The translations under genes were made by a program, and so were the position numbers. Of a stretch of DNA of 64,000 bases, positions 38,344 through 61,074 are shown piece by piece (the stretch's first letter is position 1; every line of letters starts with the position of its first letter). The notes below the pieces were generated by a model. The model made no database searches and was not told the origin of the DNA. It was given only the letters and a program-made list of their open reading frames with translations. Where the stretch lies: positions 348,016-412,015 of the forward strand of contig CANMWJ010000002.1 of the NCBI GenBank assembly GCA_947501565.1. Direction: 5' to 3'. This stretch comes from an uncultured Marinobacterium sp. GTDB lineage: Bacteria; Pseudomonadota; Gammaproteobacteria; Pseudomonadales; Balneatricaceae.

Positions 38344-38358
38344 CGGATTAAGCCTCCA

Positions 38359-38679: not shown

Positions 38680-40117
38680 TTAAGAACTCCTTCTAGGAGA
38701 TACGTAAGCATCGAAGAACGCCGGGTTCTCGAGCATGATCCGCGAGTACGCCTCTACGCCGAAGTCCACCCAGTCTCTGAGCAGATCGCAGTAGTGGTAC
38801 GAAGGTCTCGCGGCATCGCCGTACTTCGCATAACTTTCGTGGTAACAACCACCAGAACAGATGTTGCGGATGCGGCAGGTTTCGCAGCCCGTGTTGCTGC
38901 GATCAAGACGCTGTTCGACAAACTCGCCGAGACTGGTCTTGTCGATCCCCTGGTCGACATCACCAAAGGTAGGCAGGTCCGATCCGGTGAAGCGGTGGCA
39001 AAGGTTGATACCGCCTTTGGTATCCACCGCCAGCAGGCCGACACCGGCACCACAAGGCAGCTGTTTCTTGTTGCCTTCGTGCAGGTCGGTCATCAGCTGG
39101 TGCATGTTGCCGTAACCAAAGTTACGGTTGTCCAGCGCCGCTTCGAGGTACTTTTTACCAAGGCGTTTCATGCCTGCGAACACCTCTATCATCTCCTCGG
39201 ACGTGAGGTTGAAGGAAGTGATGTCGCCGGAGGTCACGGGGCCAAAGCCCACCTCGGCAAAACCCAGACCGCTTAGGTGCTCAAAGATCGCTTCCACGTC
39301 GGTGATGCCGCGTGTCAGTGTCACACGACAACCCACTGGGCGCGCCGTATAGCGCGACAGCAGCATGTCGACCTTCTGTTTCACCACATCGTAGGTTCCC
39401 TGACCGCCCACGGTAATCCGGTTTTTATCGTGCATCGCCTTGGGGCCATCCATGGAGATGGTCAGGCCGAAGCGATGTTCGTTAAACCAGTCCACCAACT
39501 CTTCATTAAGCATGGTGGCGTTGGTGGTCATGGTGAAGCTGACCTCTGATTCCAGCGCGGCAAAACGCTCTTCACAATAGGCCACCACTTTGCGGATCAG
39601 CGGCATATTGGTCAGCGGTTCACCGCCAAAGAAAACCACGTTGTACTGACGCTGGTCGGGGGACTCCTCAAGCAGCATCTCGATCGACTTCACCGCCGTT
39701 TCGTAGGACATCTTGTTGCCCGCCGACGGTGTAGTCAGGTCCTCTTTGTAGCAGTAGGTGCAACTGAGGTTGCAGCCGGTATTGGTGTTGAGCACGATCG
39801 TCGTCAGCGGAAAGTTTTTCACTTTCTGCGGTTCGTGATTGATCTGCACTGCACCACCGTCGGAAACGATACGCAGAGACTTCAGCTCCTCAATCGTATC
39901 CATCACGTCTTCCGGCTGATAACGGCCATCGAAACGCTCACGAACCATCTGCGCAGTCACCCTTTCCTGCTCTGCAAACAGATCGATCAGATCACGGCTC
40001 AGACCGTCCAGCTCAAACAGACTGCTGGTCGGCACGTGGAACATCATCTTGCGCGTGTCCACATCCACCAGATGCATGTTTGGCTTCACCAGGGATAAAG
40101 AACCCATATCTACCTCA
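38680..40117 (-). CDS. qhpD: Radical SAM/SPASM maturase QhpD, paralog 2
   Basis: CNLSCTYC and a SPASM C-terminus. ATG 40117 (MGSLSLVKPNMHLV) has an AAGGGTGAGG SD; the track GTG is at 40140. Confidence 0.8.
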
Positions 40118-40169
40118 CCCTTATTGTTATTTCGCGTCACGCGAATCTGTCTGGAGGTTTATCCGCCGA

Positions 40170-41771
40170 TTACTCGATAATCGGTGTAACAAATTTCTGT
40201 ACGGTTACCAGCAGGTGCGCTTCACCCTGAACACTGCTGTCACCGTCCTGTACGGTGCCGACTACGGTCAGGTTGCCCACGTTGTTGGTCGACATCTTAC
40301 GTTCCGGGTTCAGACCCGCATCACCCGGCGTGAAGATACCGTCACGGTCGATGGTGCCTGCGTATTTGATGTCGTTGTCGTGCTTTGCAATCTCATCAAA
40401 CGGCTTGAGGGACCAGGCCGCTGGCATATACCCCAGACGCAGATCGTCATCAGTACCCGGCTTACCGTCAGCACCGGCGGTGTAACCCACGGCACGATAA
40501 GCAGATTTCTGTTTCGGAATCGGACCACCGGCACCACCGATACGGGCGATGGACTCAGATGGCGTGATCTCGACACGATCCAGTTTGTCGTATACCGCCA
40601 GTGCAGCGTTCGCACTAACGCGCCCCACTTTCACATCCTTAGCGCCAACACGGGCGTTAGAGGACGCTTCAACCAACAGCTGAATGCGGCTGCTGTCGCG
40701 AGACACAACACTGATCAGCTTGAGGCCACTGCCGAGCTTCACGTTACCCTTGAGGTTATTGCCGGATACGGTGATTACCTTGCGCTCACCCTGTTTGATG
40801 TAGGACGGCGTTACAGCAGCGATTGCGTTGCCTTTAACCGCCTTCACGCTGCCACCGATGATCTCGTCATCGCGTTCGAACATACGCCCTTCCAGCGCCA
40901 TGCCATCAGCAGAAGCCGCCAGCACCTGACGCACTTTTACGCCGTCGATGGTCAGGCTTGCACGCCACTCGTAGCCCGCATATACCACCGCTCGGCCTTC
41001 GCCCGTCAGCGGCGTACCGTCTGCGTAAGTACCTTCAACCGCCACAGCATAGTCATCGGCAGATTGTTTGGTTACACGCAGGGTCGCATCGAAGTTGCCT
41101 TTACCTGGCAGATAGCCGGTCATTGCCCAGCTGCCGTCCAGATCTTTCTTGGCGGCGCTCTTCCAGCTGTTCCAGGCATCGCTGTTGAATGGGTAGTCTT
41201 TCGCCAGCTTCGGCGCAACGTTAGTCAGTGCGATATCAAACCATGCGCGGTCACGGGCACCGGCGTGCAGTTCAGCCGTTGGGATCTGACCCATGTGGAA
41301 GTGAACCAGGTGTTTCCACTCGTCTTCGGTACGGCGCTGCAACGCGATACGGGCACCGGAGTGACAACGTACGCAGGTCTCCTGCAGCAACTGATCGAAT
41401 GACTCCACCACGTTTGGTTTTTTCTCCAGCAGATAACGCAGACCATCGGTTTCGGACGGTGCCAAACCTTGCGTATCGGACAGATATTTAACCAGCGTGC
41501 GTTTCTCGTCCGGTGAGATCACCAGGCCGCGCTGCTGTTGCATGCGGCTGATCGTCATCATCCAGCCTTCTGGGGTTTTGCGCTGCTCACTGATGCGCGA
41601 AAACGGCGTCGCCGATTCACCGGTCTCCGTATGACACGCCAAACAGCGATCGCGAATGATGCGTTCCGCATCCGCATCCGCAGCCTGAGCAGGTGCTGCC
41701 GCCAAACCCATCAGGGCCAGTGCACCGGTTCCCAGAAGTGCGCGCGTTGTCTTGTTATTATTCAAGGCCAT
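40170..41771 (-). CDS. qhpA: QHNDH alpha subunit (dihaem), paralog 2
   Basis: CLACH and CVRCH motifs. Signal peptide MALNNNKTTRALLGTGALALMGLAAAPAQA. AAGGAG SD. Confidence 0.85.
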   Translation of the reverse strand: MALNNNKTTRALLGTGALALMGLAAAPAQAADADAERIIRDRCLACHTETGESATPFSRISEQRKTPEGWMMTISRMQQQRGLVISPDEKRTLVKYLSDTQGLAPSETDGLRYLLEKKPNVVESFDQLLQETCVRCHSGARIALQRRTEDEWKHLVHFHMGQIPTAELHAGARDRAWFDIALTNVAPKLAKDYPFNSDAWNSWKSAAKKDLDGSWAMTGYLPGKGNFDATLRVTKQSADDYAVAVEGTYADGTPLTGEGRAVVYAGYEWRASLTIDGVKVRQVLAASADGMALEGRMFERDDEIIGGSVKAVKGNAIAAVTPSYIKQGERKVITVSGNNLKGNVKLGSGLKLISVVSRDSSRIQLLVEASSNARVGAKDVKVGRVSANAALAVYDKLDRVEITPSESIARIGGAGGPIPKQKSAYRAVGYTAGADGKPGTDDDLRLGYMPAAWSLKPFDEIAKHDNDIKYAGTIDRDGIFTPGDAGLNPERKMSTNNVGNLTVVGTVQDGDSSVQGEAHLLVTVQKFVTPIIE

Positions 41772-41960
41772 CACTCCTTAAGTTTTATTTTTCTGACGAC
41801 TTGTCTCTTCAGACTTCTGCAGGTCTGGTCGATCAAAAACCGTCGATCCGCATCCCTGTAATCCGGTATCAACCCGTCCAGCCGGGCCCGATACATTCAT
41901 AAGGGTGCGTTATCTAAGTTACGCGGGTGGTGTAAATAAAATGCCGCGCTTTTGTTAGAA

Positions 41961-42139: not shown

Positions 42140-42871
42140 ATGGCTTCAGACACTTCAGCCCCAGCACACATTCTGATTGTGGAAGATGATTTCGCCTCGC
42201 GCTCGCTTTTGGTGAGTTACTTCGAGAAAGAGGGCTATAGAATTACCGAGACGGAACAAGCCGACGACCTGGTAATTCTGGTGGAAGAGCAGAAAGTCGA
42301 CCTGGTCCTGCTGGATATCAATCTACCGGGAAAGGATGGGCTCACCCTCACCCGGGAACTGCGTGCTACCTCCCGCGTAGGTATCATTCTGGTCACCAGT
42401 AAAGGTGATGAGATCGACCGTATCGTTGGCCTTGAGCTGGGCGCCGACGATTACGTGACCAAACCGTTCAATCCGCGTGAACTGCTGGTGCGTGCTAAGA
42501 ATCTGCTCTGGCGCGTGCGCAGTCAGGATAAAGATCCTCGCGAAAACGCCCGTCAGATCGCAATCTGGAACTTCGAGGGCTGGTCTTTGGATGGCAGCAA
42601 ACGACTGCTCACCTCTCCCGATCAGACTAGCGAACGTCTGCCCGAGGGGGAGTTCAAGCTGCTACACGCGTTGATCAGCCACCCCGGACAGGTGCTCTCC
42701 CGCGACCAGCTGATGGACGCAATCCATGACCGTGAATGGACCCCCAACGACCGTTCGGTGGATGTACTCGTCGGTCGCCTGCGCCGCAAACTACGCGACA
42801 ACCCGGCCGATCCCCATTTTATTCTCACCGCCCACGGTGCAGGCTACATGTTTGCCGGCGAGCTGGAGTAA
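42140..42871 (+). CDS. OmpR/PhoB-family response regulator (TorR/ArcA-like)
   Basis: REC domain (ILIVEDD...DLVLLDINLPGKDG) plus a winged-helix Trans_reg_C domain (LRRKLRDNPADPHFILTAHGAGYMF). Confidence 0.85.
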   Translation: MASDTSAPAHILIVEDDFASRSLLVSYFEKEGYRITETEQADDLVILVEEQKVDLVLLDINLPGKDGLTLTRELRATSRVGIILVTSKGDEIDRIVGLELGADDYVTKPFNPRELLVRAKNLLWRVRSQDKDPRENARQIAIWNFEGWSLDGSKRLLTSPDQTSERLPEGEFKLLHALISHPGQVLSRDQLMDAIHDREWTPNDRSVDVLVGRLRRKLRDNPADPHFILTAHGAGYMFAGELE

Positions 42872-42877
42872 CACCTG

Positions 42878-45800
42878 ATGATCAATCTGCCCGGCTACCG
42901 GATCCTTAAAAATATCTACCGTGGCCGACGCAGCAGCATCAGCCGTGCCGTGCGTTTGCGCGACAACCTGCCCGTCATCATCAAAACACTGACCACCAAC
43001 CAGCCGAATGCCGATGAGGTCGGCCAGCTTCACCACGAATTTGAGCTGTTAAGCACCCTTGATATTGAGGGTGTTATCAAACCGGTTGCGCAGGAGAAAA
43101 CTGAACCCCAGGTTGCCACCATTTTTCACGACCACGACGGCGTATCGCTGCGTGATCTGATCGAACTGAAGCAGTTCTGCTGGCACGAATGGCTACCCAC
43201 TGCCGTGAGATTGGCGGAGCTGATCGGGCGTGTGCATGACGCCCAGATCATCCATAAGCAGGTGACACCGGATAACATTCTCGTTAACCCGCACACCGGC
43301 GAGTTGCAGATGATCGACTTCACCCAGGCGACCCATCTGCAGAGGGAACAGGCAAGCTGGCACTACAGCCAGATCGACAGCGAAACACTGCCCTATATCG
43401 CGCCGGAGCAGACGGGACGTATCAACCGCGCAATCGACTACCGCACCGATTTCTATGGCCTGGGTGCCACCCTCTATGAGTTGATGACCGGCCGCCCCCC
43501 CTTTCAGGAGGAGGACCGTCTGGCGCTGGTACACAGCCATATCGCCAAACAACCGGTACCGCCCCATGAGATCAACAGCGCGCTGCCGCCGGTAGTTTCC
43601 CAGATCATCATTAAATTGCTGGCAAAGGATGCGTCGGAGCGTTACCAGTCGATCTTTGGGCTGACGCAGGACCTGCGCACCTGTCAGGAGGAGTGGCAAC
43701 GTAACCAGCGCATTGCCAGTTTCAGCATCGCCTCCGATGACCGCTCCGAACGGTTTGTAATCCCTCAGCGTTTGTATGGCCGTGCAACCCTGATAAAACG
43801 GCTGCTAAGCAGCTATGACCGCACCGCGCTGGGTCAGAAAGAGATCATCCTAATCTCCGGCTATGCCGGGATAGGCAAATCCAGCCTGGTGCACGAGATC
43901 CGCCAGTACATCAATGCCCGCGGCGGCAGCTTTATCAGCGGTAAATTTGACCAGTTCCGTCGCAACCGTCCCTACGCTGCAATCCTGTTTGCGTTACAGG
44001 GCCAGATTCGTCAGCTGCTTACCGAATCGGAATCCAGCATTCATACCTGGCGAATACGCCTGCTTGAAGCGCTGGGTGATAACGCGCAGGTATTTATCCG
44101 CCTGATCCCGGAATTGGAACTGATCATCGGTAAACAACCCGATGCGCCCAAGCTATCGCTGGCCGAGGAGCAGAACCGTTTCTCGCACCTCTTTATTCGC
44201 TTGTTGCGAACCCTGGCCACAGAAGAACGCCCGCTGGTGTTGTTCCTTGATGATCTTCACTGGGCCGATCTGGCGTCGATCAGCCTGATCAACACGTTGG
44301 CACGCAACGATCAGCTGGGCCACCTGATGCTGGTTGGCAGTTACCGTGATCAGGAGGTCAGCGCTACTCACCCTCTGAGTACCACCTTTGCCAAGTTACG
44401 TGATGGCAGGGTTAACCTGCGCGAACACCGGCTTGAGCCCCTTACCCTATCGCAGGTAAATCAGCTGATCGCCGATACCCTGCATGTAACGCCGGATCGC
44501 TGCGCCTCACTGGCGCATATCAGCATGGAGAAAACCCAGGGTAACCCGTTTTTCCTCAACCAGTTTCTGGCGGCACTCTACGAGGATGGGCTGATCTACT
44601 TCGCACAGGGTCACTGGTGCTGGGATGAGGACCGGATTCGCGATCAGGAGATGACCGATAACGTGGTCGACCTGATGGTGGGCAAGATCCAGAAGTTATC
44701 GCCAAACACCCAGAAAATCTTGCAGATGGCCGCCTGTATCGGTAGCCCTTTTACGCTGCGTATTCTATCGATCGTGCATGAACGCACACCTCAGGATACT
44801 GCCGCAGACCTCTGGCAAGCGATGGCGGAGCGACTGATACTCCCGCTGGACAACAGTTATCGCCTGCACCCGCAGGGAGATGCGGCGGCGTCACGCTACC
44901 GCTTTGTACATGACCGTGTGCAGCAGGCTGCTTATAGCCTGATCAGTGACGATGAGCGTTTGCCACTGCACCTGAAGATCGGTCGACTGGCGCTGGATCA
45001 GTTTGCCCCTGAGGAGTTTGAGAACCGTATTTTCGAGGTTACCAACCACCTCAATATCGCCGCAGATCTGATTACCGAACCCGATCATCGGCTGCAGCTT
45101 GCAGAGTTAAACCTCAAAGCAGGCGTGGTTGCACGGGATGCCGCTGCATTTGAAGCAGCTTACGAGTACTTCAATACCGGGCTGGAGATGTTGCCCGCCG
45201 ACTGTTGGCAAACGCACTACGAACTCAGCCTGGCGCTTCACACCAATGCGACGGAAACAGCGTATATTCGCTCCGACTTCAGTCAGCTGGAGACACTGGT
45301 CGGCATCGTACTGGAGCACGCCCAGAGTCTGCTGGAGAAGGTACGGCTGTATGAGATCCTGATCCAGGCACATGTGTCGCGCAATGAGTTCGAAACTGCG
45401 CTGGATACGGCGTTGCAGGTGCTGGATCTGCTCGACATCAAAATCCCGAAACATCCAGGGGCGATATATACCTGGCTGACACAAAGTAAGACTCATCTGC
45501 AGTTGAAACGTCTGCCAGCCAACCGCGTGATGCAGATGCCCGCGATGGATAACCCCAACATACTGGCCGCCCTGCCGATTATGGCAAGTATGTTTGGCGC
45601 CATTAAGTTCTCAAGCTCCGAACTACGTCCGCTGATCATGGCGAAGCAGGTAGACCTGACCCTGCGTTACGGGTTGAGCCCCTCCTCCGCACAGGCGTTT
45701 GCGGGTTACGGTGGTGTCCTCTGCGGCAAGTTTAACGATCTGGATCAGGGCTACGCCCTTGGTCAGGCGGCGCTGGCGATCGATGACCGACTGCCATCGC

Positions 45801-48800
45801 GGCTTACCCACCACAAAACGCTGTCACTCCATAACGCCTATATCCGTCACTGGAAAGAGCCGCTGTCAGCGTGTCTCGATTCCCTGAAAGAGGGGTACCA
45901 CCTGGCGCTGGATTGCGGTGATATCGAATGGGGTACCTACTGCATCGCGGCCTACATCCAGTACCGCTTTACCCTGATGGAGGATCTGGATAAGAGCCAA
46001 TCTGAGCTTGAGCCGTACATGCTCAAAATGCAGGAGAGTGGCCAGAAGCAATCTGAAGAATATTCTCGCTTAGCTCTGCAAGCTATTGATTGTATTCAAG
46101 GTAATAGTGATTCTCCTGTCGAGATGAACGGCCGGTTCTACAATGAGGAATCAGCGCTTGCAGACTATCAGGAGAACAATCACCGTACAGCGGTCTGTGT
46201 CCATCATTTCTACAAGGCATTCCTGCACTACATCATGGGTGAAACCACACAGGCAGCCCAACACGGTCGTATTGCTGAAGAGTATATCTCCTCGATCTAC
46301 GGTACCTACACACAACCGTGGCTACTGTTTGTTTCTGCAATGGCTCACCTTTCAGAGGTGCCAGACGCCAGCATCCTGCATCAACAGACGCTACTGAGCC
46401 ATGCACGCCACATACTCAAGCGAACCCGTTATTGGGCGCGCCACAGTCCCGTCAACCATCATCACCATGCGTGTATGCTGGAGGCTGAGATAGCACGTGT
46501 GACCAAGCGCTATACCAAAGCGATGGACCTTTATGAGATTGCGATCAGCGCCTGTCAAAACAGCGAAAACAACTTTGATGTTGCGATCACCTACGAGCAG
46601 GCCGCAAAGCTGTATCTGGAATGGGACAAGAAACAGATCGCCCGCAACTATCTGAAGGAATCCGTCTCTGTCTATCGCAGGATCGGCGCAACGGCGAAAG
46701 TCGATCAGATGTATCGTGTTTATGCCGATCTGCTGGAGCAAACAGACAGCAGTGCCACGACCACTCAGCCCTACCGTAACGGTGTTAGTAGCCCTAGCAG
46801 TCCGAATAATCAGGAGATCGACATCACATCGGTGATCAAGGCATCCCATGTGATCGCGGATGAGATCGTACTGGACCGCCTGTTGAGTCGGCTGATGAAG
46901 CTGGCGCAGGAGAACGCTGGGGCGCAGCGCTCCATTCTGGCCCTGAAGCGTGACCTGGAACTCTGCATCGAGGCGGAAGCCAGTCTGGATAGCGATACCC
47001 GTTTCTTCGCGGGCACGCCGCTCGATCAGGGTTTCGACATTCTGCCCGTCAATATTGTGCATTACGTCGCACGCACCAAGGAGACGGTGGTGCTGGGGAA
47101 CGCGCTGGAACATGAGATGTTCATGCACGACCGCTACATCCGGGAACATAACCCACGCTCTCTGCTCTGCATGCCGATTCTTTACCACGGTGAACTGACG
47201 GCAGTGCTCTATCTGGAGAACAACGAAAGTTCGGACGTGTTTAACCGGGAGCGTCTGGAAACCCTACAGATTTTGTCGGCACAAGCGGCGATCTCGATTG
47301 AAAACGCCAAGTTATATTCCAGCCTCCAGCAGTCTGAACAGGAGTTTCGATCGCTGTTTGAGAACGCGGTAGAGGGGATCTTCCGCGCAACACCCGATGG
47401 CACCTTTGTGTCTGCCAACCCCGCGCTTGCGCAGATTCTCGGTTACGCCTCGCCGGATAAGTTTCTTAAAGCGATTACCGATATCGCCAGCCAGTGCTTT
47501 GAAGACCCGGCATCCCTTGAGCATTTCATGTCGTTCCTGAATACCGATAACGAAGTGATCAACTTTGAAACCCGGTGGCTGGATGCCAACAAGCAGCCGC
47601 TGGATGTATCGATCTCCGCCCATCGGGTGCTGAACGATCAGGGAACGGTGCTTTACTACGAGGGCTCGTTGACCGATATCAGTGAGCGTAAGAGCCGAGA
47701 GGTTGCCGAGCAGGAACGTCTTGCCGCTATCGTGGCACAGGAGAAAGCTGAAGCAGCAAGTGATGCTAAGTCGCAGTTCCTGGCTACCATGAGCCACGAG
47801 ATCCGGACGCCGATGAACGGCATTCTCGGTATGGCGCAGCTGCTGGAGCGGGGTCACCTTTCGGAAGAACAGCGCAATCAGGTACGGGCGATCTACCGCT
47901 CGGGGCAGTCGTTGCTGTCGATTCTCAACGATGTATTGGATTTCACCAAAGTAGAGGCCGGCCAGGTAACCCTGGAAGCCCACCCATTTACGCTGAAAGC
48001 ACTGGTCGATGAGAACGAAGCGATATTAAAGCCTCTGGCAGAAGATAAGGGGCTGGACCTGATCGTACGCTACGATACGGCGTTGCCGGATATGATCGTT
48101 GGTGACCGTCGCCTGCTTAACCAGATTCTGATGAACCTGTGTGGCAACGCCCTGAAGTTTACTGATCAGGGTTTTGTCGCTCTGCGCGCACGTCTGGTCA
48201 GCCGAAGCAGCGATTCAGCTCTGATTCGCTTTGAGGTCGAGGACAGCGGTATCGGGATTGCGACCGACGCTCAGGAGCGCATCTTTGAACACTTCAGTCA
48301 GGCCGACAGCTCTATCACCCGCCGTTTCGGCGGAACCGGGCTGGGGTTATCGATCTGTAAACGACTGGTCGAGCAGCAGCAGGGCCAGATCGGTTGTGAC
48401 AGCACCGCAGACAAAGGCAGCTTGTTCTGGTTTGAGATCCCCTTCCCGGTTGCCAGTGATACCGTTGCATATTCTTCCCAGACGGCAGATGCCGCACCTA
48501 TGACGCCAAAGCAGATCCTGCTGGTCGAGGATACGGAGATTAACCAGCAAGTGACCGCCGGGTTGCTGGAAGCGGACGGCCATCAGGTAACCATAGCCGA
48601 CGACGGTTATACCGCCCTCTCCCTGCACAGCGATAACCACTATGACCTGATTTTGATGGATATCCATCTACCGGATATGGACGGTATGGAAACCACCCGC
48701 CGTATGCGCAGCCATCCCAATGCTGACAAAGCGGCAGCGAAGATCGTCGCGTTTACCGCGTCAATCACTGAGGAGGAGATCCATAACTATTTTGAAGCGG

Positions 48801-49300
48801 GTGTCGACGATGTGCTGGCGAAACCTTTGCAATATGAAGAGTTGCGTCGAATGCTGAAAGAAGATGACCACTACGAGTCTCTGCCTCAGCAGACGGTGTC
48901 GCCCGTCGATTGCGCTATCACGCAAAGTGAAAAATATTCATCCCCTTCAGATAACGATCTTCTCAATCTCAATTTGCTTAATCAACATCAAACGATGCTA
49001 GGTCAGGAACGCTTTAACACGCTTATCGACCAGTACAAAACACAGGCAAACGACCTCTTCAGTCAGCTGGAGGACGCCGGACGGCGAGGCGACCGCGGAA
49101 AGGTGCGCCAGGTTGCGCATAAACTTGCCGGCGCCAGTTCTAATTTTGGTTTGGAAAAGCTCAGCGCGATCAGCAAGTTAATAGAAGATGGGTGCGAGTT
49201 CCCCGGCGATCACGATTTTATTTCACAGATAGAGAGCGCCCACGAAACCTATAATGAGAGCATTACTGAGCTGACATGCTTCGTAAATGACGCAACGTGA
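42878..49300 (+). CDS. 2140-aa multidomain sensor: Ser/Thr protein kinase - AAA/STAND ATPase - TPR-like region - GAF - PAS - HisKA/HATPase - REC - HPt (hybrid histidine kinase)
   Basis: Kinase subdomains ([26 protein letters not shown]). P-loop [14 protein letters not shown]-box [10 protein letters not shown], with N (NLCGNALKF) and G boxes ([15 protein letters not shown]). REC domain ([10 protein letters not shown]...[14 protein letters not shown]). C-terminal HPt ([11 protein letters not shown]). Confidence 0.85.
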
Positions 49301-49432
49301 ATAACCTTACAGTTTGTAACGTTTAGGAACATTGATCGCTTTCTTTATGACACTTTTGAATAAGATTTATACAGCTGTGGTGGTATAGTGTTAAACGCAG
49401 GTATCAAACACCTGTTTAGGATATGAAACAGC

Positions 49433-49540
49433 CAGATCCTCTCTCGACAAGGCAAACCCCGAGCGATCGGGGGACGCAAAGTCACGGGTCCCTAGGGAAT
49501 TAAGCAGTAAGGGATAGCCGGACCACCGAAGGAGAGCCTC
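49433..49540 (+). promoter_or_regulatory. c-di-GMP-I (GEMM) riboswitch candidate
   Basis: CCTCTCTCGACAA-GGCAAACC-CCGA(GCGA)TCGGG-GGACGCAAAG-TCACGGGTCCC...GCCGGACCACCGA-AGGAGAG. Conserved GGCAAACC, GNRA-capped P1b, ACGCAAAG junction and ACGGGYCC, with P1 closure by CTCTC/GAGAG. Lies 55 nt upstream of ORF 49596. Confidence 0.65.
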
Positions 49541-49595
49541 TTTTACGGACAATTCATTTACGAGGATCTGTAACTCATGCATTGCAGAGGTCGTC

Positions 49596-49901
49596 ATGAA
49601 ATGTTCGTCACTGTTTGCAGGCTGCGCCTTAGTGTTGCTGGCGCTTGTTGCAAACGATTCTTCAGCCGAAGCGCAACAATCATCCCTTAACGCGCTGGGA
49701 GCCAGTGCCTCTCTCCCCGTGAGCAGCTCTCCACTAGCTCAGCAGTACGCAGCCGTCTCTATCATCCAGGCGACTTCCGCCGTAGCCAGCTCAGAACTTC
49801 GTCCTAGCGAAGAGCAACGCGAAAAAGAGGAGCGCCAGCGTAGACGGCAGGAGATTCGTAAACTGTACCTCAAGCTCTTTATGGTCATGGGCGCGCAATA
49901 A
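49596..49901 (+). CDS. Small secreted/low-complexity protein downstream of the riboswitch
   Basis: Signal peptide MKCSSLFAGCALVLLALVANDSSA, an Ala/Ser-rich region and a basic C-terminus. AGAGG SD. Confidence 0.4.
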   Translation: MKCSSLFAGCALVLLALVANDSSAEAQQSSLNALGASASLPVSSSPLAQQYAAVSIIQATSAVASSELRPSEEQREKEERQRRRQEIRKLYLKLFMVMGAQ

Positions 49902-50065
49902 TCGTTTTCCGGGGCGCTTATCGGTTGTGATTCAGGTGCAGCGTATTTTGCGTGAATTCTTATCAAGCGCAGGCGTTCGCTATGGATACAGGTGTTAACT
50001 ACAATTAACAACAGTGTCTATATATTGCTCAACCGTTGATACGCACCAAACAAAGGCGCTCCCCT

Positions 50066-51076
50066 ATGAACACTCCTCACAGATTACAAAAGGGGCTGAC
50101 AACTGTTGAATATGCTGTAGTCGTAGCGGTACTCATCACAGGTATTATCAGTAGCTTCAACAATCTCGGTTCCGCCGTGGGAAACAGCATCGGCGATCTC
50201 GCTGGCATAATGGACTACGGCGATACGTCGGGTTCATCCTCCTCCTGGTATGGCGGCTCCAGCTCCGGCAGTGGCTCGGGTTCCTCCTCATCTACAAACT
50301 CCAATGACAGTTCATCTGGTGGTTACGGCGGTTCGGGTTCCTCTATAACGTCCGGTGGGGGTAGCAGTGCATCCAATCCGGATACAAGTGGCAATGGAGC
50401 CGGTGGCGTTACAGGCGGAGGGACAGATAGTGGTATCGCCGGCGGTGGCGGCACAGCAGACAGCGGTTCAGGTGTCGGTGGTGGAGGTACTTCAGGATCT
50501 GGTGGATCTGGTGGAACCTCAGGTGGCGGCGGCGCAGGTGGGAATAGCATCGCTGGCGGTGGCGGTGGATCAGGAGGCTCAGGTTCCGGAGGAAGCGCTA
50601 CGTCAGGAGGAGGTTCCGGTGGTGGTAGTTCAGTTGGTGGCGGCGGTATCGTTGCATCAACCGGGACTGGCGGTGGTTCGGGTAACGGACCAGGCAGCGA
50701 AGAATCGGCCGGCGGTGGCAGTGGCGGAAGCGGTTCTGGTAGCGGTTCTGGTACTGGCGGCACAATCACACTCACCGTTGAGGAGATCGAATATAACGGC
50801 TATGCCGCTGCAGACACCGCATCTGGTAGCACTGAAACAGGCATAGGTGGCTCCTCAGAGGAGATCGGCGGTTACGGCACCACAATGACGGCTGGTAACC
50901 ATCAGAGCAAACAGCAGATGCAGGAAGTGGCCTCGCCAAACGCAGCGCTGGGTACAACCTTCTGGTTGCTACTTCTTCTTATCTTCCCGCTTATCTGGTA
51001 CCTGTTGTCACGTATTATAAAAGATTCCGATAACACCACACCAAAACGTAAGCGCACCTCGATGCGCTCGGTGTAA
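50066..51076 (+). CDS. Flp-pilin-like N-terminus fused to a ~230-aa Gly/Ser-rich low-complexity region and a C-terminal TM anchor
   Basis: KGLTTVEYAVVVAVLITGII matches the Flp G-x4-EY motif plus helix. Long (GGS/GSG)n tracts. C-terminal FWLLLLLIFPLIWYLL. Start at ATG 50066; the track TTG is at 50036. Confidence 0.5.
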   Translation: MNTPHRLQKGLTTVEYAVVVAVLITGIISSFNNLGSAVGNSIGDLAGIMDYGDTSGSSSSWYGGSSSGSGSGSSSSTNSNDSSSGGYGGSGSSITSGGGSSASNPDTSGNGAGGVTGGGTDSGIAGGGGTADSGSGVGGGGTSGSGGSGGTSGGGGAGGNSIAGGGGGSGGSGSGGSATSGGGSGGGSSVGGGGIVASTGTGGGSGNGPGSEESAGGGSGGSGSGSGSGTGGTITLTVEEIEYNGYAAADTASGSTETGIGGSSEEIGGYGTTMTAGNHQSKQQMQEVASPNAALGTTFWLLLLLIFPLIWYLLSRIIKDSDNTTPKRKRTSMRSV

Positions 51077-51226
51077 CACCATCTCACCCAGGACACAGCG
51101 GCACCTTCTTACGCTTAACCATCTTACGCTGTGTCCTGATCGTTTGATCCATTCTCCCGTTTCAACGTACATTTAAACAAGATATATCTACCCTCCTCTT
51201 CGAATGGAATGTTAAGAAGGATCGCT

Positions 51227-52156
51227 ATGAATCGTTTTATCGCATTAATCACTTGCCTACTGGTTAGCACCAGCGTTTATGCAAACGAATGGCGGTCCAC
51301 ACTTAACCGTGACCATCCTCTGGCGGGTAGCATCTACAATCTCTCCTCACTGGAGCCGGTAACCGAAGATGTTCTTCTTCAGAGTCTTAATCGCGCCCCG
51401 GTGGTGCTGATTGGAGAAAAGCACGATAACGCCGATCACCACGTCATCGAGGAGCGGATACTCAATACCCTGCTCTCAGGCGCCGGTAACGCCTCAGTGA
51501 TCTACGAGATGCTAACGGTTGCGCGACAACCGGATATGGCAGTTCTTTCGCCACAGGACGATTCAGAGAGTCTGAAGAGTAAGTTGAACTGGAACGACAG
51601 AAGTTGGCCCTGGAAGCATTACGGGCCGGTGGTGGAAACAACGGTAAAGAACAACGCCACGCTGTTGGCAGGCAATATAACTAAAGAGCAGATACGTACG
51701 ATCTATCGTCAAGGGCGTGACGCTATACAGGCAGACGAGAAACTTCACACGGCCTTGAATATTGAGGGCGGTGTGCGCGATCAGCTGCTTGACACGGTTT
51801 ACACCGAACACTGCATGATGATGCCTAAATCGAAGCTGGCCCCTATGGTGGACATTCAACTCGCGCGGGACGCTTATATGGCGTCGGTAATTGCTACGTC
51901 GGCAGAGACTGGAAAAACGGTATTGATCGCGGGTGGTTACCACGTGAGAAAAGACAGTGCCGTTCCCCTGCATTTAAAGAAGCTGAAGCCAGAGCTTAAA
52001 CCACTGGTCGTTATGTTGGCTGAGGTTAATCCTGAAATATCTGATATCCCCGCCTATATGCTCTCTCTGCGCGAGATTGCAGATTATGTATGGTTTACAC
52101 CACGCTCAACTGATCGGGACTACTGCGAAGACCTGAAACCCGCACATAAAAAGTAA
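51227..52156 (+). CDS. ChaN-family (DUF399, haem/iron-associated) periplasmic lipoprotein-like protein
   Basis: Signal peptide MNRFIALITCLLVSTSVYA. Conserved VVLIGEKHDNADHH and GGYHV blocks. AAGAAGGA SD. Confidence 0.55.
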   Translation: MNRFIALITCLLVSTSVYANEWRSTLNRDHPLAGSIYNLSSLEPVTEDVLLQSLNRAPVVLIGEKHDNADHHVIEERILNTLLSGAGNASVIYEMLTVARQPDMAVLSPQDDSESLKSKLNWNDRSWPWKHYGPVVETTVKNNATLLAGNITKEQIRTIYRQGRDAIQADEKLHTALNIEGGVRDQLLDTVYTEHCMMMPKSKLAPMVDIQLARDAYMASVIATSAETGKTVLIAGGYHVRKDSAVPLHLKKLKPELKPLVVMLAEVNPEISDIPAYMLSLREIADYVWFTPRSTDRDYCEDLKPAHKK

Positions 52157-53697: not shown

Positions 53698-55110
53698 TTA
53701 CTTGTTGATGTTCAGAGTCTGAGGCACGGTGTATTCCAGCAGGCCTTCCTGACCGAATTCGACACCGAAACCAGACATCTTGCAGCCACCGAATGGCGCG
53801 TGTGGCAGTACTTCAGCGTGACCGTTAACCCACGCAGTACCACATTCCAGACGCAGAGCCACTTTCTGTGCTTCAGCGGTGTCAGCGGACCATACAGAGC
53901 CACCCAGGCCAACTTCGCAAGCGTTTGCACGTGCGACCGCTTCATCGACATCGCTGTAACGGATTACCGGCAGTGCAGGACCAAACTGCTCTTCAGCAAC
54001 GATTCGCATCTCGTCGGTTACGTTCGCTACGATGGTTGGTGGGTAGAAGTAACCCTTGCCTTCCAGCGGCTCGCCGCCACAGAGTACGTCTGCACCCTGT
54101 TCACGCGCATCGTCAACCAGTGCTTTCACAAGTTCAAACTGATCTTTGTTCTGGATCGGACCAAAGGTCACGCCCTCTTCCAGGCCATTGCCAACATTCT
54201 GGGCATTAGCAATCGCCACCAGTTTTTCACACAGCGCGTCGTACTGGCTGTCGTGTACGTACAGACGTTTCAGTGCTGCACAGGTCTGGCCCATGTTCAG
54301 GAATGCGGTCTGGAAGATGCCTTCTGCGATCGCGTCCAGATCAGAATCTGGCAGGATGATACCGGCGTCGTTACCGCCCAGCTCCAGCGTCAGACGTTTC
54401 AGGTTGCTTGCAGCGCTGCGCATGATGGTTTGACCGGTCGGTGTGGAACCGGTGAAGACGATCTTGCGGATCTTGTCGTGGCTGGTCATGCCGCTACCGA
54501 TGCCGCTCTCACCGGTTACGATGTTCATTACACCCGCTGGCACCTCTTCGTTGATGATCTCAGCTAGCAACAGGGTGTTAAACGGCGTCATACCGGATGG
54601 TTTGGATACCACGGTGTTGCCAGTACGCAGGGCTGGCATGATGTGCCATACCGCAATCATCAGGGGCCAGTTCCACGGTGTGATGGAACCTACCACGCCC
54701 AATGGCTTGCGGTGTAGCTCAATACGTTTGTTTTCGCTGTCTTCCAGTACTTCAACCGGAATTTCCAGGTCCGCTGTGTAGCGGGTCCAGGCAACGGCAC
54801 CGCCTACTTCCGCCTGTGCCAGGAACATCGGTTTACCCTGCTCCTGAACGATTACAGACGCCAGTTCTTCAGCGTTAGCTTCGATGCGATCAGCAATACG
54901 GTGCAGTGTTGCTTTCAGTTCGTCATCGCTGGTGTGCTGCCAGGATTTAAATGCTTCCTCTGCGGCGTCAATGGCGCTGTTCAGCTGATCTACAGACGCG
55001 TACGGACACGCCGCAACAACCTCTTCGGTTGCCGGGTTGATCACGTCAAACGTGCCTCGGCCGCCTGCAACTTTCTCACCGTTGATAATCAGATTGTATT
55101 CTCTTTGCAT
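53698..55110 (-). CDS. NAD-dependent aldehyde dehydrogenase (aminobutyraldehyde/betaine-aldehyde DH-like)
   Basis: ALDH Glu (ELGGND) and Cys (GQTCAALKR) motifs. ATG start. Confidence 0.8.
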   Translation of the reverse strand: MQREYNLIINGEKVAGGRGTFDVINPATEEVVAACPYASVDQLNSAIDAAEEAFKSWQHTSDDELKATLHRIADRIEANAEELASVIVQEQGKPMFLAQAEVGGAVAWTRYTADLEIPVEVLEDSENKRIELHRKPLGVVGSITPWNWPLMIAVWHIMPALRTGNTVVSKPSGMTPFNTLLLAEIINEEVPAGVMNIVTGESGIGSGMTSHDKIRKIVFTGSTPTGQTIMRSAASNLKRLTLELGGNDAGIILPDSDLDAIAEGIFQTAFLNMGQTCAALKRLYVHDSQYDALCEKLVAIANAQNVGNGLEEGVTFGPIQNKDQFELVKALVDDAREQGADVLCGGEPLEGKGYFYPPTIVANVTDEMRIVAEEQFGPALPVIRYSDVDEAVARANACEVGLGGSVWSADTAEAQKVALRLECGTAWVNGHAEVLPHAPFGGCKMSGFGVEFGQEGLLEYTVPQTLNINK

Positions 55111-55193
55111 GGAGGTTGGTCCTTATCGATTGTTATAGCTATTAAAGCCGGGCCTCCTGCAAGACCCGGCTGGATTCGTGACCGTTACTTAAC

Positions 55194-56489
55194 TTAGAAC
55201 GGCACGATCGCCAGTACCTGGAAGTAGGTATTGGTGTCGTCATTACCCTGAGAGCTGGCCGCAGAATCAGGTGTAAAGAAACCCAGCAGAGGGCTGATGA
55301 TCAGGTTGTCGTTTACAACCCACTCTGCGTACAGGTTCAGCTCCTGCGCATCAGAACGGCCTGCAGCACCGCTGGTGTCTTCGAAATCGAAGAACAGCGC
55401 GCCGACAGTCAACAGTTCAGATGGGTTGGCTTTCACGCCGATGTGATGAACGTCCACGCCGGTGTTACCCGGACCTGCAGCTGCGTAGTTCGCCCATACC
55501 TCACCCTGGAACCAGGTGCCGTAGCCACGGTTAAAGCCGGTAAACAGCTGGTCGTAACCTTTATCGAAGCTGCTGTAGCGGTAGTTAACGCTTGGAGACC
55601 AGGCTACGTCTGCGAACGTCCAGCCACCTTCCACGTACCATGCATTGGCATCAGCAGAGTTGTTGCCCTGAGTCTGGTCTACGTATTCAGCAGACAGGAA
55701 CAGGTTTTCAACACCGGCATTACCCTGGTAACGCAGGCTGATGTTTTTCTGGCCGTCACGCTGTGGGTTATCGAATGCGCCACCGGCGATGCCTGTTGGC
55801 GTAGTGTCCAGACCTTTCAGGTACATCAGACCGAAGGTACCGATGTCGCTGTTATGCTCGACGTTAATACCTGCCATTTCAACCTGGCCCTGAGCCTTGT
55901 TGTCAGACTCGAACCAGAAAACGTCAGAGCGCAGACCGGTTTCACCGCCCACTTTCAACCATGCGGTTTTGTCGAACGCTTTACGCGCAGCCAGCCAGTA
56001 AGCACCACCACGGCTCAGTTCGGAATCAATCGCATCACCGAAGTTCAGGGAGTCACCGTTCATCAGGAAACCGTCACCGAGGGTGATGTTCTGACGACCG
56101 ATAGACAGATCAAACATATCGTTACGGAAACCCGCGTACAGATCTTCAACCTCTGTATCACGCTCATTACCGCTGGTTACACCAGACGCTTCACCGTCTC
56201 CCCATGCGCCTGCAGACAGCAGGCTTGCCGCACCGTATACAGCACCGCCAGCCATCTCCTGGCTACCGGACAAACCGTACTTGGCGTAGGCTTCGGTCCA
56301 GCTTGGTTTGCTTTCTGCGTTGCCGTAGGTCTCCTGAGAGCTGAAGTAACCTACGATCACTTCCAGATCAAAGTTCAGCTCGGTACCGTTCTCATCGATC
56401 AGGTTGTAAGCCGATGCAGTACCTGAAGCAGCAGCGATGGCCGCCCCCAGCAGGCAAGCAGATGCGCGGCGCATCATCTTGGATTTCAT
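55194..56489 (-). CDS. Outer-membrane beta-barrel porin-like protein, paralog of 14128..15456
   Basis: Signal peptide MKSKMMRRASACLLGAAIAAASGTASA. Conserved blocks NAWYVEGGWTFADV, YGTWFQGEV. C-terminal ...AIVPF. ATG 56489 has a GGAGG SD; the track TTG is at 56507. Confidence 0.65.
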   Translation of the reverse strand: MKSKMMRRASACLLGAAIAAASGTASAYNLIDENGTELNFDLEVIVGYFSSQETYGNAESKPSWTEAYAKYGLSGSQEMAGGAVYGAASLLSAGAWGDGEASGVTSGNERDTEVEDLYAGFRNDMFDLSIGRQNITLGDGFLMNGDSLNFGDAIDSELSRGGAYWLAARKAFDKTAWLKVGGETGLRSDVFWFESDNKAQGQVEMAGINVEHNSDIGTFGLMYLKGLDTTPTGIAGGAFDNPQRDGQKNISLRYQGNAGVENLFLSAEYVDQTQGNNSADANAWYVEGGWTFADVAWSPSVNYRYSSFDKGYDQLFTGFNRGYGTWFQGEVWANYAAAGPGNTGVDVHHIGVKANPSELLTVGALFFDFEDTSGAAGRSDAQELNLYAEWVVNDNLIISPLLGFFTPDSAASSQGNDDTNTYFQVLAIVPF

Positions 56490-56625
56490 CGTGTTCGTCC
56501 TCCGCAATAGCGTATTTTTATTTGTTGTTATGCTGAATCGGTGCGCTATACAGGAAGGGGAGCTGCTAACCGCATCAATTCATGACGTAAAGGTTACGTG
56601 GTGGCTGTAAACAGGATTTGCGGGC

Positions 56626-56665
56626 GATGTAGAGAGTTGTGCGTAGATGTAACGAGATGTAGCAC
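56626..56665. promoter_or_regulatory. 10-bp phased GATGTA direct repeats upstream of the porin-ALDH operon
   Basis: GATGTAGAGA GTTGTGCGTA GATGTAACGA GATGTAGCAC. Confidence 0.4.
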
Positions 56666-56740
56666 CCGTATCACACAAGCGAATTAAGAGCCTGTATTAA
56701 CCGGGTTGAAGGGGCAGATTTGTGGCCCGCCCGAAAACGG

Positions 56741-57640
56741 CTATCGGGCGGTACGCCAGAAACGACGGTTGTTGATGCTCAGGATCACACCGTCTTTGGT
56801 AATCTCCTGCAACACCAGGCCGCGTTCGATGGTATCCCCCTCCCCTAAACGCTTACCGTTGATCTTAACCATGCGCGACCTTGGCGTTTTGGAGAAGATA
56901 TGAACGGTAAAATTTAGCTCAGGGATCGTGCGCTGCACGTTGACCGGGAGCTGCTTCTGATGAGGAATGCCGTTGTACGGGTCAGGTTGTGCGGGTGCTG
57001 GAGCCGGTACCGGCTTGGCAGGTGATGCGTCGGCCAGCGCACCCACTGATGCCGCCAGCTTTTTAACCACTTCGGGTTTACTGGCTGATGCAGGCGTAGC
57101 TTTCGCGACCGTAGGTCTGGGTGGGGGTGGGGCTGTCTGAGTTGGCCTGGTGCTACGGGGAGGCGCAGAACTGCTGGTAAGCTGGTCCCGAATGGCGTTC
57201 TCAGCATAACGGGTGGGAGCGACCGACATATCGTTAGCACGCGCGCTGGCCGTACGGATCTTAACGTTCTCAACCTCCGCCAGTGCTTCTGCTGACAACA
57301 ACCAGTCATCATTGCGCAATGGGGGTTCTACCGCGGTAATGGGCAATGGAACGCTCATGCTCGAATTGGCCTGGGGTGCTACTGGGATTGGTTGCACCTC
57401 CGTCCTCACTGGTGCCGCCTGTGTCGGCGTTTCTGATGACTCAGTTAACGTCGCATAGATTCCCGCACTGCTTACCGCCAGGATAGTCACAGCCAACGCC
57501 ACGACCCCCGCCCACATATAGGGGATTGGCCTGCCATCCCGGGTCTCTACCAGCTGTAATGGTTGCGTACGGAGATCGGGAATTTCACCTCTATGGCGGT
57601 CACGATCCGAGTGTTTCAGTGCATCGAGAATATATGACAT
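56741..57640 (-). CDS. gspB: GspB/ExeB-like type II secretion assembly protein
   Basis: N-terminus MSYILDALKHSDRDRHRG matches the GspB family. TM segment then a Pro/Ala-rich periplasmic region. Directly follows gspA. Confidence 0.65.
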   Translation of the reverse strand: MSYILDALKHSDRDRHRGEIPDLRTQPLQLVETRDGRPIPYMWAGVVALAVTILAVSSAGIYATLTESSETPTQAAPVRTEVQPIPVAPQANSSMSVPLPITAVEPPLRNDDWLLSAEALAEVENVKIRTASARANDMSVAPTRYAENAIRDQLTSSSAPPRSTRPTQTAPPPPRPTVAKATPASASKPEVVKKLAASVGALADASPAKPVPAPAPAQPDPYNGIPHQKQLPVNVQRTIPELNFTVHIFSKTPRSRMVKINGKRLGEGDTIERGLVLQEITKDGVILSINNRRFWRTAR

Positions 57641-57642
57641 GG

Positions 57643-59316
57643 TTAGGCGCCTCCCTGCTTATCTTGCAGTTGAGGCACATCACTCGATGAAACCGAGTTC
57701 AGCAGAATCGCCGTATGTGGTCCAACCACCCCATCGGGCACCAGTCCATGGCTGGTCTGGAAACGTTTCACCTGCCTGACAAGGCCACTGTCGTAGGTCT
57801 GCAAGCGGAAATAACGTGGCGCCCGGCTCTGGGCCAGCGCCAACTGACGATCCAGCCAGATCACTTCAGGGCCTGTCGTACCGGGATGAATAGGCGCCTT
57901 GTAGTGCTCGGGTACCCGCCACACCACCGTATATTTGCCGACTACCCAGAGCTTCAGGTCTTCAACCTTAACACGGCGTATTTCGCCAGCGATGGAGACA
58001 CGAGCGATACCCTCTTCAACACCAATCAACGTGGCAAAAAAGTTTTGCCCTTTGGCGTTAAACAGATTAATCACTGCCGGACGGTTCAGGTTGATCAGCT
58101 CTTCCAGGCTGCCGATATTAAAGAGGCATCGTAGACCATTTGTCTGGGCAAAGCGGCACACCGCCGGTTGTTTGCGCGGCTCATACGTAAGGTTCCATTC
58201 CGCCATGAGGGTCTTGTACGCCTGTACTTCGGTTCGGGCGGTATCGGTTCCGGTAGGCCACTGCCAGTTGGCTGGATTAGACAGTTCCTGCCCCCGCGTT
58301 ACTGTAGGCTGGGATGCTTGAAGTGACTCAGCCTTGCTGATGCCGGTGTTTATCAGCTCACTGGTTACGTTTTGCGCGGACTGAATCAGCTGATTTTCAG
58401 GCAACGCGCTATACACCGTCGCACCCAACCCTACTGCCAGCAGTAAAGAAGCCGCTAAAGCCACAGGTCGGGTGATTCGGCGCTTGCCACTGGCGAGACC
58501 ATGCGACGCGCCTTCACCAAATACTTCGTTGGCGGCTTTGCCCAGCGTATTCTCTTCGACACGGTTCTCCCTTTGAACATAAGCACCGAGCAACGCCCGG
58601 TCACAGATTATGTTTACTAAGCGCGGAATCCCCTGAGTGAGCTTATACAGACGCTTAATCGATGAGGGCGGAAATAGCTGACCATCCACGCCGGCGACAG
58701 ATAAGCGATGTGCGATATAGGCCGGCAACTCCTCCTGGGAGAGCGCGTGGAGATGGTAGCGTGCGGTAATCCGCTGGTTGACCTGACGAAGCTCCGGTTT
58801 CGAGAGCTTTTCAAGCAGTTCCGGCTGACCGATCAATATGATCTGCAGCAGCTTCTGCGTGTTGGTTTCCAGATTCGTCAGCAAACGTATGGTTTCTAAT
58901 ACCTCAACTGACAGGTTCTGGGCTTCATCGATAATCAGTACCGTATGCCTGCCTGCCCGATGATTGGCGAGAAGGTGCTCGTTGATCGCATCAACATACT
59001 CCTTTAACTCACCATCTTTCGGGCAATTTATCAGCAGATCGTCGCAAATCGCATCCAAAAGCTCTGTGGCGCTGAACTGCGGATTAAGAACGAATGCGAC
59101 CTCGGTGTTTTCCGGTAACTGTTCCAGTAAGCAACGTGACACCGTGGTTTTACCGGTACCCACTTCGCCAGTGAGCAGGACAAAGCCACCGTTACTGTTT
59201 ATGCCATAGAGAAGATGAGCAAGAGCCTCGCGGTGTTGCTCACTCATATAAAGGAAGCGCGGATCGGGCGCGATCGCGAAAGGCGGTTCTGATAATCCAA
59301 AGTAGTTGCTGTACAT
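57643..59316 (-). CDS. gspA: GspA/ExeA-like AAA ATPase with C-terminal peptidoglycan-binding domain
   Basis: MYSNYFGLSEPPF...LLTGEVGTGKTT has an ExeA N-terminus and Walker A. TM segment. C-terminal PG-binding motif FQTSHGLVPDGVVGPHT. AAGGGG SD at ATG 59316; the track ORF begins at 59358. Confidence 0.75.
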   Translation of the reverse strand: MYSNYFGLSEPPFAIAPDPRFLYMSEQHREALAHLLYGINSNGGFVLLTGEVGTGKTTVSRCLLEQLPENTEVAFVLNPQFSATELLDAICDDLLINCPKDGELKEYVDAINEHLLANHRAGRHTVLIIDEAQNLSVEVLETIRLLTNLETNTQKLLQIILIGQPELLEKLSKPELRQVNQRITARYHLHALSQEELPAYIAHRLSVAGVDGQLFPPSSIKRLYKLTQGIPRLVNIICDRALLGAYVQRENRVEENTLGKAANEVFGEGASHGLASGKRRITRPVALAASLLLAVGLGATVYSALPENQLIQSAQNVTSELINTGISKAESLQASQPTVTRGQELSNPANWQWPTGTDTARTEVQAYKTLMAEWNLTYEPRKQPAVCRFAQTNGLRCLFNIGSLEELINLNRPAVINLFNAKGQNFFATLIGVEEGIARVSIAGEIRRVKVEDLKLWVVGKYTVVWRVPEHYKAPIHPGTTGPEVIWLDRQLALAQSRAPRYFRLQTYDSGLVRQVKRFQTSHGLVPDGVVGPHTAILLNSVSSSDVPQLQDKQGGA

Positions 59317-60965: not shown

Positions 60966-61074
60966 CAAAACTGCGCGGCGCTGACGCCGCGCAAATTCTT
61001 AACTCATTGAATTTCAGTAACTTTCATTAATGGCTTAAAGGTTGCTTAATTACCTGTAGGGGACGGAGGTAATT

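Follow-up and report, generated by a model that had tools for sequence, protein, structure and literature searches.

The riboswitch under study lay in a 64-kb window (the whole stretch of DNA that was analysed), in the 5' leader of a gene for a 101-aa secreted protein, followed by a gene for a 336-aa Flp-like, Gly/Ser-rich membrane protein. The coordinates of the leader elements, the genes and the neighbouring features are collected in Table 1. A sigma-70 scan of 49250-51250 found no promoter. A minus-strand ORF at 49391-49597, which overlapped the aptamer, was set aside as a mechanical artefact. A second c-di-GMP-I riboswitch was located further downstream in the same window, at 61833-61916 (+), with RF01051 as its model and a score of 53.6 bits.

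Table 1. Positions of the leader elements, genes and neighbouring features in the window.
Feature	Position	Strand	Basis or remark
E1 CAGAUCCUC, 5' switching strand	49433-49441	+	9-nt complement to 49562-49570
P1 elements as read, CCTCTCTC with GGAGAG	49438-49445 with 49531-49536	+	read in sequence
P1 5' strand CUCUCUCG	49439-49446	+	minimum-free-energy fold pairs 49527-49529 and 49532-49536
c-di-GMP-I clan aptamer	49442-49531	+	Rfam, fold, covariation
GGCAAACC	49451-49458	+	read in sequence
Hairpin CCCCGA-GCGA-UCGGGG, GNRA loop	49457-49472	+	read in sequence
GCGA tetraloop	49463-49466	+	within aptamer
GGACGCAAAG	49472-49481	+	read in sequence
TCACGGGTCCC	49482-49492	+	read in sequence
AGCCGGACCACCGA	49516-49529	+	read in sequence
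P1 3' strand CGA-AG-GAGAG, contains E2 GGAGAG	49527-49536	+	minimum-free-energy fold, covariation
Predicted ribosome-binding-site hairpin	49545-49608	+	minimum-free-energy folds
E3 GAGGAUCUG	49562-49570	+	can pair with E1 (long-range helix) or, via its tail, with the SD region
Shine-Dalgarno (SD) AGAGG, 5 nt before ATG	49586-49590	+	sequence
Direct cargo, 101-aa secreted protein	49596-49901	+	pN/pS 0.14 against sister strain
Conserved spacer block GTGAAnnCTnnTCAAGC...CTCGnTA	49952-49989	+	common to L072, L075 and L076
Flp-like gene, 336-aa protein	50066-51076	+	pN/pS 0.26 in frame, 0.9-2.9 in other frames
12-bp inverted repeat after Flp-like gene, no U-run after	51089-51137	+	fold
T2SS-B-like gene	56741-57640	-	
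ExeA-like gene	57643-59358	-	
VpsR-domain gene	59574-60965	+	

The aptamer and its class

Rfam cmscan of the whole window gave a c-di-GMP-I clan match of 61.2 bits (E 5.3e-12), far beyond chance, and a scan of the isolated region returned the identical result. Membership of the clan (CL00126) was defined as a covariance-model score at or above the gathering score of a clan member, and the match exceeded the cut-off of 59 bits for RF03167 (c-di-GMP-I-GGC) over the full length of that model (positions 1-80 of 80). The original prediction of a c-di-GMP-I riboswitch in the leader of ORF 49596 was borne out by this match and by the GEMM-I fold, and all of the GEMM-I elements that it had listed at 49433-49540 were present; the covariance-model check that it had named also returned a clan match above the cut-off, but with RF03167 rather than RF01051 as the best model. 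The unconstrained ViennaRNA fold showed the two-hairpin GEMM-I architecture closed by P1, with the first hairpin capped by GCGA.

Relatives were collected with the DNA pattern ATCCTCTC-N4-7-AAGGCA-N18-26-CGCAAAG, which combined the 5' flank and the aptamer core and was applied to one genome per species. It matched 64 loci, 47 of them in Oceanospirillaceae (Neptuniibacter, Marinobacterium, Pontibacterium, Amphritea and Motiliproteus), with about 48 aptamers, and the remaining matches look like chance hits that hold no aptamer. Scanning metagenomes with the riboswitch pattern yielded few further members and revealed no gene arrangement beyond those already seen. In an alignment of 26 related aptamers, compensatory changes were found in 9 of the 25 pairs, the P1 pairs were kept in all 26 and the consensus was the GEMM-I fold. 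Two hairpins, a GNRA tetraloop, P1 closure and covariation, the structural marks of RF01051, were thus all found.

The Rfam consensus lines of the two models differ in their conserved letters only at GACGCGAAG (RF03167) versus GACGCAAAG (RF01051); the “GGC” of the variant's name we take, from these two lines, to denote positions 20, 47 and 92. The window aptamer reads GACGCAAAG, with an A where the RF03167 consensus has a G at the A47 position. With the Vc2 numbering mapped to the consensus, in part by way of the Vc2 sequence, the Rfam alignment placed the equivalent of G20 at G49451 (AAGGCAAAC), that of A47 at A49478 and the CC containing the equivalent of C92 at 49526-27 (CACCGAAG). In GEMM-Ib, the 3',3'-cGAMP riboswitch, an A replaces the G at position 20, and the G at 49451 separates the window aptamer from that class. 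The ligand contacts of Vc2 are G20, A47 and C92 (PMC4744006), and all three are present here.

A true c-di-GMP-I-GGC variant with altered ligand specificity would account for RF03167 outscoring the other Rfam models and for P1 flanks (CUCGA...CCGAAG) that fit the variant consensus, but this is highly improbable given the A at the sole strongly conserved difference between the two consensus lines and given the behaviour of the label itself. When 18 related loci were scanned, all of them with CGCAAAG because the search pattern required it, 11 of the 19 aptamers were labelled RF03167 and 8 were labelled RF01051; in this lineage the label therefore follows the fit of the P1 flanks and not the binding site. 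The whole-window scan also held one further, lower-scoring clan match above its own cut-off, which was hidden by clan competition. This match was placed at 49442-49531 because the best score of the second riboswitch lies below the RF03167 cut-off of 59, and it is almost certainly RF01051, whose cut-off is 35 bits. On the A in GACGCAAAG, the G/A/C contacts, the behaviour of the label and the hidden match, the element was treated as, and filed as, a canonical c-di-GMP-I riboswitch, and the aptamer would be expected to bind c-di-GMP. The riboswitch class is known, and the element is one more, ordinary member of it. Clan competition in Rfam labels canonical (A47) aptamers as “GGC”, which matters for counts of variant riboswitches.

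Four metagenome-derived contigs from the same species, about 96.7% identical overall, were used to assess selective constraint. The 295-nt leader contained no substitutions, whereas the flanking genes differed by 3.3-3.7% between strains and synonymous sites by 8-10%, and the neutral-looking spacer 3' of the second gene and its inverted repeat differed by 9.8% (13 differences, all at 51158-51205). It is therefore exceedingly improbable that the aptamer is a decaying, non-functional relic: the orthologous small-protein genes at loci L072 and L075 appear to have lost the aptamer and keep only a CUCUC...GAGAG hairpin, but here the consensus bases are all intact, the model match is full length and the leader has 0 of 295 substitutions between strains with that synonymous divergence. 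By aptamer identity, structure, selective constraint and the conservation of four leader elements described below, the riboswitch was confirmed as genuine.

Genes downstream of the riboswitch

The 101-aa protein encoded directly behind the riboswitch has a signal peptide, a middle part of low complexity and, at the C-terminus, a helix that is basic and hydrophobic and ends in RKLYLKLFMVMGAQ. Its AF2 model was poor except for the C-terminal helix (residues 72-99), and could not be used for a fold search because of its pLDDT of 59. An exact look-up of the protein gave no match, and a word-index homologue search found it in the same species only; the relatives came from the DNA-pattern scan. Inspection of the genes that follow related riboswitches brought out a family of secreted proteins, 90-119 aa long, that end in R/K-x-F/L-Y-L-x-L-L/F-M, with members in Neptuniibacter caesariensis, Neptuniibacter sp. 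PT1, a Neptuniibacter MAG and Marinobacterium arenosum, so that the family is linked to the riboswitch in both Neptuniibacter and Marinobacterium. In Neptuniibacter the small gene is monocistronic, with a PAS-GGDEF-EAL gene before it and a convergent gene after it. No Pfam or NCBIfam model matched the family, and neither cargo protein matched NCBIfam when the models for C-terminal sorting signals were included. A Pfam New_glue match to the small protein (17.5 bits, cut-off 31) was dismissed as compositional. The product under riboswitch control would be a small secreted protein whose family is unannotated.

Two observations concern the small gene in other genomes. In a Neptuniibacter MAG (L025, riboswitch oriented +), the small gene under riboswitch control is followed, 595-1615 nt downstream of the riboswitch start, by genes for another small secreted protein and for a LapG-like cysteine protease of the transglutaminase-like type (Peptidase_C93). 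The LapG-like Peptidase_C93 family is known from c-di-GMP-controlled adhesin release. At L072 (960-1090) and L075 (1-85), small-gene orthologues carry a short CUCUC...GAGAG hairpin in the place of the aptamer and keep the GAGGUCGUnAUG start region. These leaders gave no Rfam match at E values up to 10, and the arrangement looks like the loss (or gain) of an aptamer within a retained stem. The absence of the aptamer from orthologous leaders provides a natural experiment on riboswitch turnover.

The Flp-like gene is a real gene, as its pN/pS ratios show (Table 1). Its product begins with QKG↓LTTVEY (the arrow marks the Flp processing position), continues with about 200 aa rich in Gly and Ser and with ITLTVEEIEY, and has at its C-terminus a transmembrane helix, FWLLLLLIFPLIWYLLSR, and then a basic tail. 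The Flp-type N-terminus that the original prediction had assigned to this protein was upheld: the processing motif G↓xxxxEY precedes a hydrophobic helix (QKG↓LTTVEYAVVVAVLITGII), and Q-x-G-L-T-T-V-E-Y was invariant in all five family members. The Flp_Fap model (PF04964) matched the N-terminal 56 aa with 19.7 bits (E 7.5e-4) and the whole protein with 15.9 bits, both below the gathering cut-off of 32.2; it matched four of the five family members, with a best E of 8.5e-7 and all scores below the curated cut-offs, and the family profile weakly matched Flp family type IVb pilins in the PDB. A full HMMER scan recovered four homologues (P0009-P0012) of 274-288 aa with the same layout, namely a low-complexity middle, VTFTVxEIE, a C-terminal transmembrane helix FWLALLILFPxFWxxLSR and a basic tail. 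A word-index search with the N- plus C-terminal parts of the protein found the same species only, and a metagenome scan confirmed no relatives.

The protein begins like the Flp/Fap pilins of Tad (type IVc) pili, with a short basic leader and with G↓xTTVEY ahead of a hydrophobic helix. Unlike them, it is 336 aa long instead of about 50-80 aa and contains the long Gly/Ser-rich tract, the conserved C-terminal transmembrane helix and the basic tail. A tad/cpa assembly locus with a prepilin peptidase, expected beside such a pilin gene, was not seen: none of the window ORFs scanned encoded a Tad component. The C-terminal anchor argues against an assembled pilin; a second transmembrane helix points to an inner-membrane protein with a large periplasmic loop and not to a pilus subunit. 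No relevant publication emerged from a search of the literature on c-di-GMP riboswitches in front of Flp/Tad genes.

The original prediction placed the riboswitch in front of the Flp-like gene and made that gene its primary cargo. The gene does lie downstream, but the small gene is directly behind the riboswitch and the Flp-like gene starts 164 nt further on; as primary cargo it gave way to the small gene, which recurs with the riboswitch in other genera and is the sole gene of the unit in Neptuniibacter. The idea that the Flp-like gene is unique to the species and unrelated to the small gene was also dropped, because the small gene, the Flp-like gene and a ChaN-like gene are syntenic at L072/73 and L075. 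A ChaN-like gene always follows the relatives of the Flp-like gene, as it does in the window. At L072/73 and L075 the small gene precedes the Flp-like gene behind the plain CUCUC...GAGAG hairpin, and at L076 the Flp-like gene stands with neither small gene nor riboswitch.

A single riboswitch operon of both genes, with the Flp-like membrane protein as the main target, is possible but doubtful. The two genes share a strand, on which no terminator-like site separates them, the spacer is nearly invariant, with one substitution between strains, the genes adjoin in three lineages (the window, L072/73 and L075), and a strong hairpin, the inverted repeat of Table 1, follows the Flp-like gene and possibly ends the transcription unit. 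These points are offset by the monocistronic riboswitch and small gene of Neptuniibacter with its convergent neighbour, by L072 and L075, where the gene pair is present and the aptamer absent, and by L076, which keeps the upstream block when both the small gene and the riboswitch are missing; a translational switch on the first gene alone would also not control the second. Because this block is kept even in L076 and the spacer is nearly invariant, the Flp-like gene appears to have its own regulatory region, and the block at 49952-49989 is a candidate promoter or operator. Control of the Flp-like gene by read-through transcripts is possible but unproven, and the comparison of loci lends it no support.

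Expression platform and direction of the switch

The leader contained four elements, E1 AGAUCCUCUC, E2 GGAGAG, E3 GAGGAUCU and the SD region, and this design was found in about 35 related leaders and in both riboswitches of the window. In the family, E1 reads (A)AAGAUCCUCUC and its 3' half is the 5' strand of P1; in the leader under study the 3' part of E1, CUC, doubles as the start of P1. The family E3 reads (A)GAGGAUCUUU, lies 25-35 nt beyond E2 and is complementary to E1 over 8-11 nt. At least 32 related leaders, and the second riboswitch as well, repeat the pair AGAUCCUC/GAGGAUCU, and GAGGAUCU was found 100-130 nt downstream in at least 32 loci and both window riboswitches; E3 was absent from the search pattern, which was built from E1 and the aptamer core alone. 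Next to the invariant E1:E3 core, the flanking pair varied among A-U, G-U, G-C and C-G, being C-G in the window leader and A-U in most relatives. The covariation score of E1:E3 was 0.093 vs 0.068, reached by 25 of 500 shuffles, which is weak support because the core is invariant. As an alternative role, the invariant GAGGA of E3 could serve as a standby site for the ribosome.

The tail of E3 can also pair with the SD region. In the predicted ribosome-binding-site hairpin, one stretch of pairing joins UCUGUAA (49567-73) to UUGCAGA (49582-88) and another joins CAU to the start AUG. The E3-tail:SD hairpin was present in 23 of 28 distinct relatives (z < -1.64), with pairs that differ in sequence (UUCGC/GCGGA, UUUUGAA/UUCAGGA and CCUG/CAGG). 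The GAGGUCGUnAUG arrangement of the start region is shared with the orthologues at L072 and L075.

The element is proposed to be a class-I c-di-GMP riboswitch of canonical type that lies in the 5' leader of the small secreted protein gene and acts most likely as a translational OFF switch, a reading to which we give a probability of roughly 0.6. Without ligand, E1 (CAGAUCCUC) would pair with E3 (GAGGAUCUG, 49562-70) and hold it off the ribosome-binding site, so that the small gene would be translated. With c-di-GMP bound, P1 (CUCUCUCG with CGA..GAGAG) would be locked and would capture the G+C-rich end of E1, and the freed tail of E3 would close the hairpin that buries AGAGG and the AUG, so that translation would go down. 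Constrained folding agreed with this order of events at the level of the family: when P1 was forced, the predicted SD accessibility was lower in 32 of 34 leaders (mean 0.09 vs 0.22). In the second riboswitch of the window, the E1:E3 and P1 states were at most about 3 kcal/mol apart, and only the former left the SD open. The equilibrium model did not discriminate for the riboswitch under study: it predicted the SD/AUG hairpin in every state and placed the E1:E3 state 4.4 kcal/mol above the minimum, and we therefore infer the OFF direction, as well as action at the level of translation, from the family. Even with P1 in place, six base pairs of E1:E3 (CAGAUC/GAUCUG) would remain able to form, and the two states therefore do not exclude each other strictly.

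The direction cannot be read from the aptamer alone, because close homologues differ. In Vibrio cholerae, Vc2 acts as an OFF switch: once ligand is bound, its P1 represses translation by masking a remote ribosome-binding site (PMC11705072 and its reference 58), whereas Vc1, upstream of gbpA in the same species, has been reported as an ON switch. The window riboswitch shares with Vc2, the RF01051 type example upstream of tfoY, the two-hairpin aptamer, P1 closure, the GNRA tetraloop, the G/A/C contacts, the location in the 5' UTR of a gammaproteobacterial gene and the likely mode, in which P1 stabilised by the ligand would mask a distant ribosome-binding site. It differs in its lineage-specific relay of AGAUCCUCUC, GGAGAG, GAGGAUCU and SD and in its cargo, an unannotated small secreted protein. 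With Vc1 it shares a GEMM-I aptamer ahead of a secreted or surface protein gene, but the window platform predicts OFF.

The same aptamer would be an ON switch, as in Vc1, if E1 (CCUCUC) served as an anti-Shine-Dalgarno sequence that c-di-GMP draws into P1, turning translation on. CCUCU is indeed complementary to the SD AGAGG, the SD of many relatives is GGAGAG, the same as E2, and the commonest cargo of the subfamily, a cadherin-domain secreted protein, belongs to a kind of surface protein typically induced by high c-di-GMP. This reading is nevertheless unlikely: E3 offers E1 a longer (9-11 bp) and closer partner than the SD does and would win the competition for it, the SD pairs in the folds with the tail of E3 and not with E1, and forcing P1 lowered the SD accessibility in nearly all leaders instead of raising it.

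About as improbable is an action on transcription or RNA stability, through Rho-dependent termination or processing, in place of translation initiation. Neptuniibacter relatives with the same E1 in an extended P1 and a U-run directly after it have a terminator-type platform, the metagenomic relative L078 has a classical terminator, and Rho sites are often exposed when translation is blocked. However, no intrinsic terminator was found on the + strand from the aptamer to the start codon, and the SD region is what E3 is conserved to pair with downstream. The OFF switch at the level of translation is thus preferred, and the lineage-specific platform is, judged from the leader comparison, probably of this kind.

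Related riboswitches and other loci of the window

Most of the other riboswitches of the Oceanospirillaceae subfamily precede genes for secreted proteins of 770-1060 aa with a Zn-protease motif and cadherin/Big_9 domains. The second riboswitch of the window has the same E1/E2/E3/SD platform, with an 11-bp E1:E3 helix, and precedes an ORF from 61988 to the window end for a large secreted protein with an HELGH Zn-protease motif and cadherin/Big_9 domains. In another set of leaders from Neptuniibacter and relatives (L005, L006, L009, L011, L012, L014, L028, L030, L032, L037, L055, L059, L060 and L088), E2 and E3 are fused, P1 is lengthened by AGAUC/GAUCU and a U-run follows directly. P1 itself would be the terminator stem in these leaders, enclosing the whole aptamer, and the next ORF on the same strand starts 200-400 nt downstream.

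Just upstream of the second riboswitch, a VpsR-domain sigma-54 activator stands beside ExeA-like (AAA and peptidoglycan-binding) and T2SS-B-like genes. VpsR belongs to a family with a c-di-GMP-binding regulator. Synteny with Pontibacterium contigs, at about 72% nucleotide identity, extends over the region 53936-62046, this arrangement included, and makes the source of the DNA a relative of that genus. The riboswitch under study is itself immediately preceded, at 42140-49300 (+), by an OmpR-type response regulator and a 2140-aa protein with Ser/Thr-kinase, AAA, GAF, PAS, histidine-kinase, receiver and Hpt domains; the same kinase adjoins the Flp-like gene on its upstream side at L076.

Two tRNA-like elements at 32818-32975 (-) have abnormal anticodon loops (ARAGORN “tRNA-???”, 4-nt and 2-nt anticodons; Rfam tRNA only about 45 bits) and head an SPFH/Band7 - RtcB - RtcA operon that is divergent from rtcR (33261-34859). 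A second RtcB paralogue at 24070-25844 (+) is followed by an overlapping gene with an RF-1 domain (PrfH-like). Two paralogous quinohemoprotein amine dehydrogenase clusters, at 15647-20299 (-) and 37183-41774 (-), each comprise an alpha subunit, a radical-SAM maturase and a beta-propeller subunit.

As a tentative suggestion, rather unlikely as it stands, the subfamily may form a c-di-GMP regulon with two kinds of cargo, the secreted Zn-protease/cadherin proteins and the 90-119-aa secreted proteins with the R-x-F-Y-L-K-L-L-M helix, a family not described before, and in this lineage the small protein may act jointly with the Flp-prepilin-like protein, a new kind of Gly/Ser-rich inner-membrane protein with a C-terminal anchor, the two making up a new envelope or surface module under c-di-GMP control and not being unrelated neighbours. 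The leaders provide a conserved, testable four-element platform, probably translational, found in about 35 leaders of one bacterial family. Two unannotated families, the small secreted FYLKLLM proteins and the Flp-like anchored Gly/Ser-rich proteins, can now be tied to c-di-GMP signalling.
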